The notes under the pieces: model-generated | Databases searched by the model: none | Told to the model about the DNA's origin: nothing | The model's input: only the letters and a program-made list of their open reading frames with translations | Shown here: positions 18,347-64,000 of the stretch, piece after piece | How the letters are laid out: each line of letters starts with the position of its first letter | Position numbering within the stretch: position 1 is the stretch's first letter | Translations under genes and position numbers: made by a program | Source: an uncultured archaeon | GTDB lineage: Archaea > Asgardarchaeota > Thorarchaeia > Thorarchaeales > Thorarchaeaceae | Direction of reading: 5' to 3' | NCBI GenBank assembly: GCA_964558645.1 | Contig: CAZLEV010000001.1 | Location: forward strand, 189,568-253,567 | DNA: 64,000 nt

Positions 18347-18804
18347 GAAGATACCGTCCTTATCTAAGAAACTTCAGGGGATTCGATGAACTTGTGATGG
18401 TTCTGCCTTTTGACTTCTTCTGAGGTGTGATTCCGAAAGGTTCCAAAAGGTTCTCTCCAAACTAGTATCTCATGAAATCTAGTGTTGAGCGAATGTTGTT
18501 GTCAATCGAAGGTCTCTCCGTGGGTGACGCTTTCGGGGAGCAGTTCTTCTATCATCGTGGGTTGGCAGACGCAAAGTCCCTCCCTCCAGGTCCTTGGCCC
18601 TACACTGACGATACAACAATGGCACTGTCCATAGTGTCTGTCCTGATGAAAGAGGAGCAGATCGATCAAGACTCTCTTGCAGCGAGCTTTGCGAATCATT
18701 ACAATCCCGTACGGGGATATGGTCTCGGGATGCGTAAATGTATTCCCCGAGTCAGAAATGGCGCGCCTTGGAGACCCATCTTCGCCTCACTCTTCGATAA
18801 CGAG

Positions 18805-19013
18805 GGTTGCTAACAGTTGCATAGAAGTGGGACAAAGTGGGACACTTCATAGATGAGCGTCTGAATAAATATGTAGGTCTTTATATACTCCCGGAGTGAG
18901 ATGAGAGTATGAGGTTGACTGACACGCCCTATGGCCTCACAGAGTCTCCCCAGTGCCGTTCTTGCGAGCACATGACTCTGGTGTCTAAGATTGTACAATT
19001 TACTATGAACGGT
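18805..19013 (+). mobile_element. Non-autonomous mini-element copy 1 (206 bp plus duplicated GGT/GGTT core)
   Basis: Precise gene interruption; GGTT at 18805 and 19011; AAGTGGGACA x2 at 18825-18844; inverted partner pair at 18982-19001; homologous to 62990-63177. Confidence 0.88.
18880..18887 (+). promoter_or_regulatory. Candidate archaeal TATA box inside the inserted element
   Basis: TTTATATA begins 29 nt before ATG 18909, a spacing similar to other starts in the window. Confidence 0.4.
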
Positions 19014-19596
19014 TCTTTCGGGAATGGGGCCTCAATGAGAGTTGCTCCCTTGGGCGCGTTTTTTGCTGACATGCCAGATGATCTGGTCGAGAACGCAGCT
19101 CTCTCAGCTCAGGTCACCCACCATCATCCTGAAGCAACGGCAGGTGCAATTGCCGTAGCTATGGGGACAGCGCTGGCGAGCGAGTATTCCTCCTCGCAGG
19201 CACATGATTTCCACAGTTTCATCGAAAACATACTCGAATATGTGCCAGATAGCATGACTAAGGAGGGAATAACCATTGCCTTTGCCTTGGGCCCAGATGT
19301 GCCAGTAGAAGAAGCAGCGCGGAAACTCGGGTCCGGTTACGAAGTCACCACGCAGGATACTGTTCCTTTTGTGATCTGGTGTGCTTCGGCCTTCATGGGC
19401 GATTATGAAGAGGCTCTGTGGCACACCGTTCGAGGGGGCGGCGACATGGATACAACCTGCGCAATGGTGGGTGGAATCGTGGTGATGTCAACAGGCATAG
19501 GTGGGATTCCTGAGGAATGGCACAGGAGAAGAGAGCCACTACCTGATCTTCCATTCGAGGAGTGACTCTTCCAGTTGCGTGTCTATTCGTCAGTCC

Positions 19597-60071: not shown

Positions 60072-62891
60072 CTAGAAGAGCCTCCCTTTCTGTTGTGTTT
60101 CATCCCAAGCAAGATGTGCAATCGTCGATAGGGGCATATTCATCTCGAAAGCTGAGAGCGCAAGAGCTACGACAGTGGCAGTCATGAACACCGCAAACAA
60201 CATACCCAGTAGAATTGACCAAGGAATAACGAGAATAATCGGATATGGAAATGAGGTCAATGCAATACCTGAGGACAGAATTAGCAGCTCAATCCCATTA
60301 CTGATCATGATTGGCGTTGTAATCAACAAGAGCATGCTGGAGTAGAATGAGAGGGTCAGCATCTGAGTCAGATTGTATCCTAGAACCTCTCGTTTCCCTG
60401 CTCCCAGCGATTTCAGAAGAGCTGTTTCTCTTATCCTTTGTTGTCGAGTAGATACGGTGTATGTGACCAGTGTAATAGGAATCAGAATGAATGTAAGAAC
60501 AGAGAGCATTGTATGAACTGAGCGGTCCAACATGTATCTTTCACTCTCAGTATGCTCTTTCACGATCTCAAATGCCGCTGCAGACCCGCTGATCGCATCG
60601 GCTGCAGAACCCGTGTTCTCTATTATGTTTCGACGAGCTGCACTTCCGTTGGCAGTATCTTCGGTTCGAGCACATATGTAACCATTGCTGATATCCCCGG
60701 ATCCGAGCTGACTCTGAGCCAATGCCCGGTTGATCCAAATCCTGCCCCGTCCAATCCTACCCGAGTATTGATTCTTGATTGGAGGGTGGTATCCATGAAC
60801 CGAGACCATAGAGTCAGGTAGTTCGCTTACTACCCCCAAAATGACAAATGTCAGGGTTTCAATCAAAGACCCGTTCCTTCTAAATGCATTCAGTGTATCT
60901 CCTTCATATACGCCGTATGACGCGGCAATGTCCTGAGTTAGCACTGCGCCGTTGAGAATCGTATGAAGCTCCTCGAGGTAGTCCATGAGGTAAGAGGATT
61001 CGAGGCCGATTCCCTGAGCGTCATATCCAGTGTATGCATAGTCCAGCGGATCAACAGCGACAAATTCGAGCTTCTCCTGTAGCTCGGTTGACAAGGATAA
61101 TCCATAGACGCTAATGAGAGAGGCTGACTGAATATCCGGATGATTCTCCGAAACGGCAAGAATATCATCCCATAGGTTCGATTGCGACTTCCTGAGGCTG
61201 AATGCAATATCTCCCCCGATTGCAAAACGGGTTTGGTTTAGAATCGTTTGGTCAAGAGTTGTATCAAGAATTGCGTTGTTCCAAATCAGACTCGTTGAAA
61301 GCATGAGTATAAGAATTGCAAGTGCAGCCTGTATCTTCTGGGTCTGGACACTTCTGATACCGACAATTCGCTTCGACGCAAGACCTCTACCTCTTAGGAA
61401 AGAGGATATCTTGCTCAGAGGCCTTCCCAATTCCTTTGTGACAAGATCCCCGAGCGCTACCACCGCTACATACGGAGCAATACGGATTATCAGTGTAGCT
61501 ATCAATGATGACTTGATTGCTGTCGGTGCCTGTGATATTCCTACGACAAGCAGAAATGAACAGACAACAAGGGCTACATCCCATTGAACACGCTTTAGGT
61601 TCATCGGAATTCTAGAAATCCCTGAATTGGAAGAATCAGATTTACCTGCAAGGAAAGGGGGTATCAAGAAGGCTCCCAAGACTACACAGGGGGCGATCAC
61701 TCCGTAGAGAATAAGAGCAAAGATTGAATCCAAGGAAACGAGTATGCCGAGCTGAATTTCGAGGGCTCCTCTCTGCGCCAAGCTTCCTATCATCAAACCG
61801 ATTTCGTCAAACAAGATGCTCAGGCCAATCGAAGGCACAATTGCAATGACTGCAATGGTCAGAACCTCCTTGTAAGCCAGCCCCATGATCTGACGAGAAG
61901 AGGCACCTCGTGATTCCAGTGTTTTGATTCTCCTGTTATGGTGCTTCATGAAGATAAGCAGCCCCTGAATCATAACAAGAACTCCCACAAAGAGAAAGCT
62001 CTGGATTCGGATGAGCTGTGTTAACCGAGCAGAATTGAGCCAGTTTGAATAGCTTTCGATTCCCTTTAGCAGCAGATTATCCACGAAGAACCCGGTAACA
62101 TGCCTCTCCGAGTATCTTGGGTCCAGTTGTCGGATGCTCTCATCAATCTCTTGGAGGTAATGTAGGCTTCTGGAGGGCCAAAAGGCACTGATATGCTCCC
62201 GTTCTACATCGAGATACACGTAGTCTTCTCTCCCACGATCTCCAATGAGCTCGAAAGGTACGACAGCATAGGCTGAGGTGTAGTAGTATGATACCTGGTT
62301 GTCCGTTGCTCCCAGACGGTACACTCCTACTAGCTCAAGAATGCGCTTTGTTGCCTCCTGTTGGAACACGTATTCTACAATGTCTCCGGGGCCCACATGA
62401 TAGCGGTCTGCAACCCAGTCAACAACTGCTATTTCGCTGGCATTTTCTGGATATCTCCCAGTTGTGAGATTCATGATGCTCCCGAACATTTCGGTAAAAT
62501 CTGGACCGAGACAGGCAGCCCGAGTCGTAGTATTCAACTCTGGATCCAATGGATCTCCAGATACTAAGAAGCCGCTCGAAGGAGTTCTGTTGTGATGAAG
62601 GGGATATGCGTATATCATGGCCCAGGCACTGTGTAGGTATGCAGCCTTCGTAACTCCTGGTATAGCACGGATTTCGTTGATGTGCTTGAGTCCCTCGCTA
62701 CCAGTTATCACAGCTGAAGCTGGCCCAACATTTGTGCTTGAGTGCCACGTCACCAGAGAGTAGGAATCCAGATAGGCAAGTGTGCTTCCCAAAATGGTGT
62801 TTGACATCGTTAAACAGATTATGAGGTACCCTAAGCTTCGACACCTTGAGATGCTCAAACCTATCTGAACTCCATCTCTTAGGTTGTTCAT
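60072..62891 (-). CDS. Large FtsX/MacB-like ABC permease
   Basis: GRYPENASEI, LESRGAS, ETALLKSLGA motifs; same architecture as its neighbour. Confidence 0.85.
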   Translation of the reverse strand: MNNLRDGVQIGLSISRCRSLGYLIICLTMSNTILGSTLAYLDSYSLVTWHSSTNVGPASAVITGSEGLKHINEIRAIPGVTKAAYLHSAWAMIYAYPLHHNRTPSSGFLVSGDPLDPELNTTTRAACLGPDFTEMFGSIMNLTTGRYPENASEIAVVDWVADRYHVGPGDIVEYVFQQEATKRILELVGVYRLGATDNQVSYYYTSAYAVVPFELIGDRGREDYVYLDVEREHISAFWPSRSLHYLQEIDESIRQLDPRYSERHVTGFFVDNLLLKGIESYSNWLNSARLTQLIRIQSFLFVGVLVMIQGLLIFMKHHNRRIKTLESRGASSRQIMGLAYKEVLTIAVIAIVPSIGLSILFDEIGLMIGSLAQRGALEIQLGILVSLDSIFALILYGVIAPCVVLGAFLIPPFLAGKSDSSNSGISRIPMNLKRVQWDVALVVCSFLLVVGISQAPTAIKSSLIATLIIRIAPYVAVVALGDLVTKELGRPLSKISSFLRGRGLASKRIVGIRSVQTQKIQAALAILILMLSTSLIWNNAILDTTLDQTILNQTRFAIGGDIAFSLRKSQSNLWDDILAVSENHPDIQSASLISVYGLSLSTELQEKLEFVAVDPLDYAYTGYDAQGIGLESSYLMDYLEELHTILNGAVLTQDIAASYGVYEGDTLNAFRRNGSLIETLTFVILGVVSELPDSMVSVHGYHPPIKNQYSGRIGRGRIWINRALAQSQLGSGDISNGYICARTEDTANGSAARRNIIENTGSAADAISGSAAAFEIVKEHTESERYMLDRSVHTMLSVLTFILIPITLVTYTVSTRQQRIRETALLKSLGAGKREVLGYNLTQMLTLSFYSSMLLLITTPIMISNGIELLILSSGIALTSFPYPIILVIPWSILLGMLFAVFMTATVVALALSAFEMNMPLSTIAHLAWDETQQKGRLF

Positions 62892-62989: not shown

Positions 62990-63177
62990 GGTAGATTGCA
63001 GCTACAAAAAACCTAGACAAAGCTAGACATTTCTTGGGGTGCTTGTGTACCTCGGTACAAGACTAGTTCATAGTTCATCTGGCACCGCTGTGTTGACCTC
63101 ACGGAGTGAAGTTCCACTGCCGTTTCTGGACGGACAAGACTCCGGTGTCGAGGTTTGTCCAGCTTACAATGAACGGT
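62990..63177 (+). mobile_element. Non-autonomous mini-element copy 2 (185 bp plus duplicated GGT core)
   Basis: 48/64 gapless identity to the copy 1 right end and 29/45 to the left end; GGT at 62990 and 63175; AACCTAGACA-AAGCTAGACA at 63010-63029 and inverted pair at 63146-63165. Confidence 0.82.
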
Positions 63178-63207: not shown

Positions 63208-64000
63208 TCATGAACCAGCCTTGCGCAGATGTATATCTATCCTCGTTCCTCCCATCTCTGAGTTTCGAATCTCGATTCTGCCACCATAACTTCTGACGAT
63301 CTCCTTAACAAGGAAGAGGCCTAACCCGGGCGAACCACGTGTTTCCGGTTCGAAGCCACTGTTGAGGATGTCTTCAATAATGCCCTGAGGAATGCCCTTT
63401 CCATCATCCTGTAAGGTGATTATGATGTTACTCTCATGAGTCTGTGCAGTGAGTCTGATTTCGGTGCCGTCAGAATGCTCGAGTGAGTTCTCTATTAGAT
63501 TACTCAATAGGGGTTTCAGGAGTTTTCCTCCCTGAACCATCAGTTCTTGTTCTGGAAGACTTGTCCTTACACTCATTCCTTCGCCAAACTGTCGTAGGTT
63601 GCTCTCCGAAATCACGGATCGAACAACGGGGACAATATCGATGGATTCGAGATCCTTCTCTCGTTCGACATCCCGTAACAGTCTTACTCTTTCGATGATA
63701 TCTTGCTGGCGTTCGAGTCCAATCAGGGCCTTGTTGAGGATTTCGGATTGTTCTGCTGTCAGGTCTGTGTTCTTGAGGATCTCAAGAGCGGCCTGAACGA
63801 CCTGAATACTATTACCTACATCATGAGTGAGCAAAGAATGAAGGAACTCCCTGCGCCTCTCCGTCTGTTTCTGTTCGGTTGTGTCAAGAGTGATTTCTAC
63901 AGCTCCCACAGTAATGCCGTTCTCGTCTTTGACTGGAGCACCGGCGACCAACCACCACCTCCCATCGGGTGTTTCTCTCTCTCCGCTCTCTGGCTTTCCT
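63208..64000 (-). CDS. PAS-domain sensor histidine kinase, 5' truncated by window
   Basis: Frame open to the window edge; PAS/PAC end, H-box THDVGN, N-box NLIENS, DDGKG, GLGL. Confidence 0.88.
   Translation of the reverse strand, partial: GKPESGERETPDGRWWLVAGAPVKDENGITVGAVEITLDTTEQKQTERRREFLHSLLTHDVGNSIQVVQAALEILKNTDLTAEQSEILNKALIGLERQQDIIERVRLLRDVEREKDLESIDIVPVVRSVISESNLRQFGEGMSVRTSLPEQELMVQGGKLLKPLLSNLIENSLEHSDGTEIRLTAQTHESNIIITLQDDGKGIPQGIIEDILNSGFEPETRGSPGLGLFLVKEIVRSYGGRIEIRNSEMGGTRIDIHLRKAGS

Follow-up and report, generated by a model that had tools for sequence, protein, structure and literature searches.

A short insert splitting an ADP-ribosylglycohydrolase gene of Candidatus Thorarchaeota is very probably a MITE of a resident IS607-family transposon

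The 206-bp insert that disrupts an ADP-ribosylglycohydrolase gene in the 64,000-nucleotide stretch analysed here (the window) is very probably a gene-less MITE, derived by internal deletion from an IS607-family transposon whose hosts are Candidatus Thorarchaeota, members of the Asgard archaea. The assignment follows from the ends that the insert shares with full-length elements, from the linkage of those ends to an IS607-type TnpA, and from an anatomy that matches what has been published for the family. It explains the pseudogenised ADP-ribosylglycohydrolase gene as well as some 40 unannotated repeats in this Thorarchaeota genome, and exact boundaries can now be given for an IS607 lineage in Asgard archaea. 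The first-pass annotation of the window had taken the insert and its homologue for an unrecognised family; their anatomy is that of published IS607 elements (PMC6188088; PMC10711439).

The interruption was read directly from the sequence: the frame runs GAT AAC GAG GGT up to window position 18807 and resumes with TCT TTC GGG AAT GGG from 19014, and the insert between the two (Table 1) contains stops and has a length not divisible by three. Deleting it in silico restores ...DNEG-SFGNGASMR. In two genomes of the same genus, G001 and G002, the orthologous gene is continuous across the insertion point; the empty site (insertion point marked by a slash) reads GAG GGA/TCC in G002 and GAG GGC/TCA in G001, in the contexts ...GAT GAG GGA/TCC TTT GGG... 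and ...GGT GAG GGC/TCA TTC GGA..., with the proteins ...DDEG-SFGNGASMR and ...GGEG-SFGNGASMR. Given that the gene is intact at exactly the same site in both congeners, the insertion was precise and is younger than the split between the species. That the insert splits this gene had been noted at first pass, and the sequence, the two Pfam halves and the intact orthologues all agree with it. As a side observation, the frame opened by the ATG at 18909 in copy 1 stays open past the right end and continues in frame with the 3' part of the host gene (ORF 18909-19565, 218 aa), so that the insert could drive a truncated ADP-ribosylglycohydrolase fusion product; an open run of 35 codons such as the one in copy 1 is not unusual by chance (about 0.2).

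Table 1. Coordinates in the window of the two MITE copies, their parts and the interrupted gene.
Feature	Position	Strand	Basis or remark
ADP-ribosylglycohydrolase, 5' part	18472..18807	+	ORF list; Pfam PF03747 (ADP_ribosyl_GH) profile positions 5-111; ends ...DNEG
Left junction GGT	18805..18807	+	GG is the putative crossover dinucleotide; with G18804 forms the GGG left-flank (TAM-like) motif
MITE copy 1, subfamily B	18808..19013	+	206 bp, counted with the right GGT
Left-end tandem direct repeats, AAGTGGGACA x2	18825..18844	+	Candidate TnpA sites; family consensus TGGACA, 10-bp phasing
TATA-like box, TTTATATA	18880..18887	+	21 nt before the ATG at 18909; putative promoter
Relic of hairpin H1, CCCAG-TGCCGTTC-TTGCG	18949..18966	+	3' arm mutated here; intact TTGGG in sister copies
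Right-end repeats, TGTCTAAGAT + TGTACAATTT	18982..19001	+	Inverted relative to the left-end repeats; 10-29 bp from the junction; candidate TnpA sites
Right terminal GG and mostly fixed T	19011..19013	+	9 nt after the right-end repeats of copy 1
ADP-ribosylglycohydrolase, 3' part	19014..19565	+	Pfam PF03747 profile positions 120-287, E = 1.6e-35; starts SFGNGASMR
MITE copy 2, other subfamily than copy 1	62990..63177	+	188 bp with both GGT; intergenic
Copy 2 left junction GGT	62990..62992		
Copy 2 left-end repeats, AACCTAGACA + AAGCTAGACA	63010..63029	+	Sequence read directly
Copy 2 right-end repeats, TGTCGAGGTT + TGTCCAGCTT	63146..63165	+	Sequence read directly
Copy 2 right junction GGT	63175..63177		

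The element belongs to a sizeable family. An nhmmer profile made from both window copies found about 39 right ends in the 3.63-Mb genome, and a profile made from complete copies gave 42 matches in the same genome, 25 of them near-complete at 183-210 bp and divided among several subfamilies; the congeners hold at least 12 and at least 5 copies of one subfamily. A family of non-autonomous mobile elements of about 200 bp had been proposed, with further copies to be sought in the genome and its relatives, and both were borne out by these matches and by the same ends in full-length elements of relatives. Copy 1 has two sisters at 94-95% identity (G000 C15:56937-57145 and C1:352678-352886). The homologue recognised at first pass, copy 2, does align with copy 1 from end to end, at 77% mean column identity; its nearest relative (G000 C28:21717-21905) is 80% identical, and it lies between two minus-strand genes, one for a histidine-kinase-like protein (stop at 63208) and one for a 939-aa membrane protein (start at 62891).

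What is constant at the junctions is the dinucleotide GG, present at 22 of the 25 left junctions and at 19 of the 25 right ones. The third base is T in about 15/22 left and 14/19 right junctions and otherwise mostly C; the base preceding the left GG is G in 18 of the 22 MITEs. Left ends of full-length elements read GGGT in 8/8 cases, and GG is found at the termini of all full-length elements except for two degraded right ends. The layout reported earlier, GGT ends with tandem 10-mers, is exact (in copy 1, GGT is followed by 17 nt and then by AAGTGGGACA twice), whereas GGT as a fixed core has to be reduced to GG as the part that is invariant across the family. The further suggestion that the shared trinucleotide marks a recombination core and not a random target duplication agrees with the GG at the junctions and with the empty sites of the congeners; since those empty sites already read GAGGG, the GGG motif belongs to the target and not to the element. 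The ends show neither terminal inverted repeats nor a target-site duplication.

The left-end consensus consists of the flank (A)GGG(T), a few bases, AACAGCT, about 8 nt, and TGGACA-AAG-TTGGACA. At the right end the consensus is ...CCAGTGCCGTT...GTCCAAGTTTGTCCAAC.TACAATGAACGG(T), and the terminal ...ACAATGAACGG(T) is near-universal among the roughly 40 right ends of this genome and recurs in 16 full-length elements from relatives. Phased at 10 bp, the repeats are 18-37 bp away from the junction on the left side and 10-29 bp away on the right. This arrangement is close to what Chen et al. (eLife 2018; PMC6188088) describe for the IS607 family, in which terminal inverted repeats and target duplications are absent, GG stands at the exchange site of both termini and unoccupied targets, and TnpA sites are direct, helically phased repeats of about 9 bp located about 20-60 bp from the left end; in IS1535, two TnpA motifs lie 10-28 bp from the right end (PMC6188088). 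Four repeats are required for efficient end pairing in IS1535 (PMC6188088), and only two are clear in the MITE left end. The conserved G preceding the left GG completes a putative target-adjacent motif (TAM), as the resulting GGG matches in sequence the TAM of an IS607 TnpB, that of ISXfa1 (Yoon et al., NAR 2023; PMC10711439).

Full-length elements with the same ends were found among relatives, the Candidatus Thorarchaeota MAGs of a comparison that covered 36 genomes of the family. In this genome, the right end of the MITE recurs 35 nt past the stop of a 719-aa TnpB-like ORF on contig C14, a large nuclease with Cas12f1-like TNB and OrfB_IS605 domains (Pfam), and it follows tnpB homologues at 16 loci of relatives. 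The same left end lies about 70 bp upstream of tnpA in L045, L048, L049, L047, L050, L038 and L041, with the repeat pair about 20-40 bp inside the end and about 70 bp upstream of the tnpA start; on contig C5 of this genome it precedes by 38 bp a frameshifted tnpA relic (MYSVSQAALRL...RRWD, then ...AIYARVSGHRQ). The large tnpB itself occurs in 25/36 genomes of the family, in many Thorarchaeota genomes as several copies; the present genome has three full copies, and contig ends cut through several others. In relatives, more than 12 loci show a Resolvase-domain gene encoded on the tnpB strand and upstream of this large nuclease gene, either adjoining it or about 5.5 kb away with an opposite-strand gene of about 1,850 aa in between. 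Scanning these loci with profiles of the MITE ends gave element lengths of 2.6-3.2 kb (L048, L049) and 8.1-8.7 kb (L045, L047, L050). The check proposed with the first-pass annotation was to look for a long autonomous version, with a recombinase gene enclosed by the same ends; such elements are present in Thorarchaeota relatives.

The proteins encoded between these ends are those of an IS607-type element. TnpA (L045:519-1139; L048:546-1148) combines HTH_17/MerR and Resolvase domains, scores 175.5 and 160.5 bits against the NCBIfam model NF033518 "IS607 family transposase" (cut-off 110), and has as its top PDB matches the TnpA catalytic domains of ISC1926, ISC1904 and IS1535. The ORFs examined (L045, 150 aa or longer; L048, 120 aa or longer) comprise the IS607-type tnpA, the TnpB-like gene and, in each element, one ORF that Pfam leaves unassigned (1,838 aa in L045; 320 aa in L048). 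The TnpB-like protein (L002:665-2824, minus strand) is about 720 aa long, its N-terminal ~480 residues have no family match, and its score of 72.6 bits against an NCBIfam TnpB cut-off of 100 marks the nuclease partner as a divergent TnpB. The full-length order is left end, tnpA, sometimes the opposite-strand gene of about 1,850 aa, the gene for the ~720-aa TnpB-like RuvC nuclease, and right end. What the MITE retains of such an element amounts to about 70 bp at the left end and some 70-130 bp at the right; in copy 1, the left end is kept up to the position of the tnpA start codon, as judged against the resident relics C2:462391 and C1:506254.

By analogy with characterised IS607 elements, the insert may have arrived as follows. 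TnpA supplied in trans would bind the helically phased TGGACA-type repeats of both ends, pair the ends and exchange strands at the GG dinucleotides, releasing a double-stranded circle with the predicted junction ...GAAC-GG-T-left end, in which the right end ...GAACGG is joined to TTGCTAAC.... The circle would then recombine with a GG in the target, which for this ADP-ribosylglycohydrolase insertion falls within the Gly codon of ...GAG GGN TC..., and the expected outcome is an insert bordered by GG on either side, with neither inverted terminal repeats nor a genuine target duplication. A double-stranded circular intermediate and a GG-to-GG crossover have been described for IS607 (Yoon et al., NAR 2023; PMC10711439). 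We infer TnpA binding to the repeats, the circle, and a TnpB-assisted homing step from this parallel. Earlier proposals fit the same scheme: the tandem 10-mers, then read as recombinase-binding repeats, are laid out as in IS607 (PMC6188088) and probably have that role, and the circle junction predicted at the time is the one that an IS607 circle would have.

The ends were at first read as those of a tyrosine-recombinase mini element; in this model, arm-type repeats border an 11-7-11 core created by joining the ends, and the variable 6 nt that follow the left GGT correspond to a coupling sequence like that of Tn916. A fixed short core at both junctions accompanied by subterminal repeats suits such a model, and so does the complementarity in copy 1 between CATAG on the left and CTATG on the right. 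That complementarity, however, is not conserved in other subfamilies; the 6 nt are poorly conserved element sequence, specific to subfamilies and common to sister copies at different sites; the ORFs examined in L045 (at least 150 aa) and L048 (at least 120 aa) include no tyrosine recombinase; and the recombinase gene at these ends encodes an IS607-family serine transposase. We regard the tyrosine model as extremely unlikely and adopt the IS607-like serine-recombinase alternative that had been named beside it, in agreement with the TnpA scores above the NF033518 cut-off. The other alternative named then, an IS110/IS1111-type element with a DEDD transposase and a bridge RNA, would likewise account for a short conserved core and for the lack of terminal inverted repeats; no DEDD transposase is among the ORFs examined between such ends in the two full-length elements L045 and L048, no Rfam RNA family was matched in the window, and its probability is close to nil.

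An element of the IS200/IS605 type, a PATE that a Y1 HUH transposase would move in single-stranded form and insert 3' of GGGT, comes nearer in some respects: TnpB also accompanies IS200/IS605, the conserved motif lies on the left flank only, the right end holds hairpins, and PATEs are known for IS605 (Meers et al. preprint, 10.1101/2023.03.14.532601). Against it, a PF01797 search of the genome found no match to a Y1 transposase, the left end consists of direct repeats and has no subterminal hairpin, an IS607 TnpA accompanies the ends at many loci, and the occurrence of the same GG at both junctions and in the target is expected of a double-strand crossover; this origin is very unlikely. A chance repeat or an assembly artefact might be suspected because repeats often break or mis-join metagenome assemblies, because tnpB copies lie at contig ends here, and because a single contig of run X4 joins two copies. 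Both junctions of the insert are, however, spanned by contigs from three independent metagenome studies, which excludes its mis-assembly, and the 25 near-complete copies have distinct flanks while the congeners preserve a precise empty site, leaving this explanation with a negligible probability. Removal of the insert from the mRNA by splicing (bulge-helix-bulge, or group I in the manner of an IStron) was a separate candidate and was rejected: there is no Rfam intron match, and the sole end-to-end complementarity, CATAG/CTATG, is confined to copy 1. All Rfam families at gathering thresholds gave no match in the whole window.

Several contigs of the assembly start or end inside copies of the large tnpB (C1:3-803, C6:2-784, C16:1-1554, C27:28168-29553 and C10:2-376), which identifies this repeat family as a main cause of assembly breaks; gene copies, possibly including an intact tnpA, may be missing from the assembly as a result. 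The contig of run X4 mentioned above is of low depth; it has copy 1 and its right flank (window 18804-19160) attached to a left flank that belongs to the sister copy C1:352678. It is most likely a repeat-induced chimera, recombination between MITE copies being a less likely explanation.

Present-day mobility of the MITEs was considered in the light of the transposase genes available to them. A tblastn search with TnpA from relatives detected three copies of tnpA in this genome, all of them pseudogenes: the relic at C2:462460 has ATA in place of its start codon and a stop after about 135 codons, the one at C5:222181 is frameshifted, and the one at C1:506319 meets a stop after 33 codons. The relics surfaced by tblastn only, a Pfam Resolvase search of the genome having returned no match. 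As all detectable tnpA copies are pseudogenes, the MITEs are probably stranded, unless an intact tnpA exists among unassembled sequence; the genome is 92.8% complete and its assembly breaks at these repeats, so that such a gene could have escaped assembly. The divergence of 5-6% between sister copies does not point to very recent activity, and in the contigs of four public runs no empty-site or circle joints were reported.

The right end contains a hairpin, H1, of the form (N)CCAG-UGCCGUU(N)-CUGG(N), conserved over 16 full-length and 19 MITE right ends. One of its pairs is compensatory (C-G 18, U-A 9, U-G 2, G-C 1), and the structure is paired in 74% of cells compared with 33-44% for slid controls. 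In full-length elements H1 falls within the last codons of tnpB, the place where the scaffold of an omega-RNA should lie. H1 has been preserved in the MITEs, as have the ~65 nt adjoining the guide position; they lack the upstream half of the putative scaffold, which full-length elements carry within their tnpB reading frame. Folded as single sequences, MITE RNAs are no more stable than shuffles (z = -1.0, -1.1, +1.0 and +1.5), and full-length right ends are mildly more so (z = -2.3, -1.7 and -1.2). RNAalifold returned only a trivial 5-bp stem with no compensatory change for the full MITE alignment, and no structure for 40 right ends. Another candidate, an outer stem CAGAG.../...CTCTG that seemed compensatory between subfamilies, was discarded, being paired in just 52-61% of cells.

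Upstream of the right end, by 113-133 nt and at the same alignment position in most copies, lies an AT-rich, TATA-like box. It is conceivable, though we hold it to be unlikely, that the MITEs are satellite guide-RNA genes: transcription would start at this box and run across the preserved right-end hairpins and on into flanking sequence, and the short omega-RNA so made would load the ~720-aa TnpB in trans and direct it to cut GGG-flanked empty alleles, and homologous repair would recopy the MITE. If this were true, a gene-less element would be parasitising both the TnpA and the TnpB of the Asgard IS607 lineage. In published IS607 elements, the fixed nucleotide after the right end is part of the guide-RNA scaffold (PMC10711439), and the GGG left flank and the right-end hairpins predict, for the large TnpB, its TAM and the end of its scaffold.

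Two further observations deserve mention. The ORF of about 1,840-1,880 aa (L045:1120-6636, minus strand; L072:2492-8140, corresponding to G000 C14:56291-61939) stands head-to-head with the large tnpB and has no Pfam match (best TPR_14, E = 0.22); about 8 or more loci of relatives have it inside the IS607-type element, with tnpA to one side and tnpB to the other, and it may be a conserved giant cargo gene of the transposon. At the C14 tnpB locus, neither a left end nor a tnpA relic was found beside tnpB and the giant gene. On contig C5 (L001:613-5514; G000 C5:222112-227013), 4.9 kb separates a left end, accompanied by a tnpA relic, from a right end that has a relic of the tnpB C-terminus; between them lie two intact ORFs, one of 795 aa and one of 233 aa with a Thr-rich linker; the locus may be a decayed element with captured cargo or the product of two recombined elements.

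The MITE itself is ordinary, in that it behaves as the published ends of IS607 elements predict. As in IS607, IS1535, ISC1926 and ISXfa1, the full-length partners encode as their transposase a serine recombinase whose N-terminus carries a MerR-type HTH, and tnpB follows downstream. The ends agree with the family in lacking terminal inverted repeats and target duplication and in having GG at both termini and in the target (PMC6188088; PMC10711439), as well as in their helically phased subterminal repeats of about 10 bp, including a pair at 10-29 bp from the right end (PMC6188088); with ISXfa1 they share the GGG left-flank motif, which is the TAM of that element, and a mostly fixed nucleotide after the right GG (PMC10711439). 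IS607 TnpBs have been proposed as the source of the eukaryotic Fanzor nucleases (PMC10711439), and for this reason the large TnpB and the ~1,850-aa gene are of some interest.

The differences from described IS607 elements lie elsewhere: the window element is 206 bp long and without genes, its host is an Asgard archaeon, the partner TnpB of about 720 aa is nearly twice the usual size and falls under curated TnpB cut-offs, and many full-length copies carry the Pfam-less gene of about 1,850 aa between tnpA and tnpB. Only the lineage is new: it has an Asgard host, a TnpB of about 720 aa and, frequently, a giant cargo gene, and in this genome its MITEs have multiplied in a burst to about 25 or more copies.

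Gene-less relatives of IS elements provide the closest comparisons. The archaeal element ISC1733 has a resolvase-type orfA plus an orfB. SMN1 of Sulfolobus islandicus, which uses ISC1733 in trans, resembles the present MITE in being short and gene-less, in sharing its ends with an IS and in depending on a transposase supplied in trans; it differs in sequence and in the phylum of its host, and measures 320 bp (PMC3718332). The PATEs of IS200/IS605 are likewise gene-less, keep their ends and often retain a guide-RNA region that would need TnpB in trans; unlike the element described here, whose ends are of the IS607 type, they move by the single-strand mechanism of a Y1 transposase (10.1101/2023.03.14.532601).
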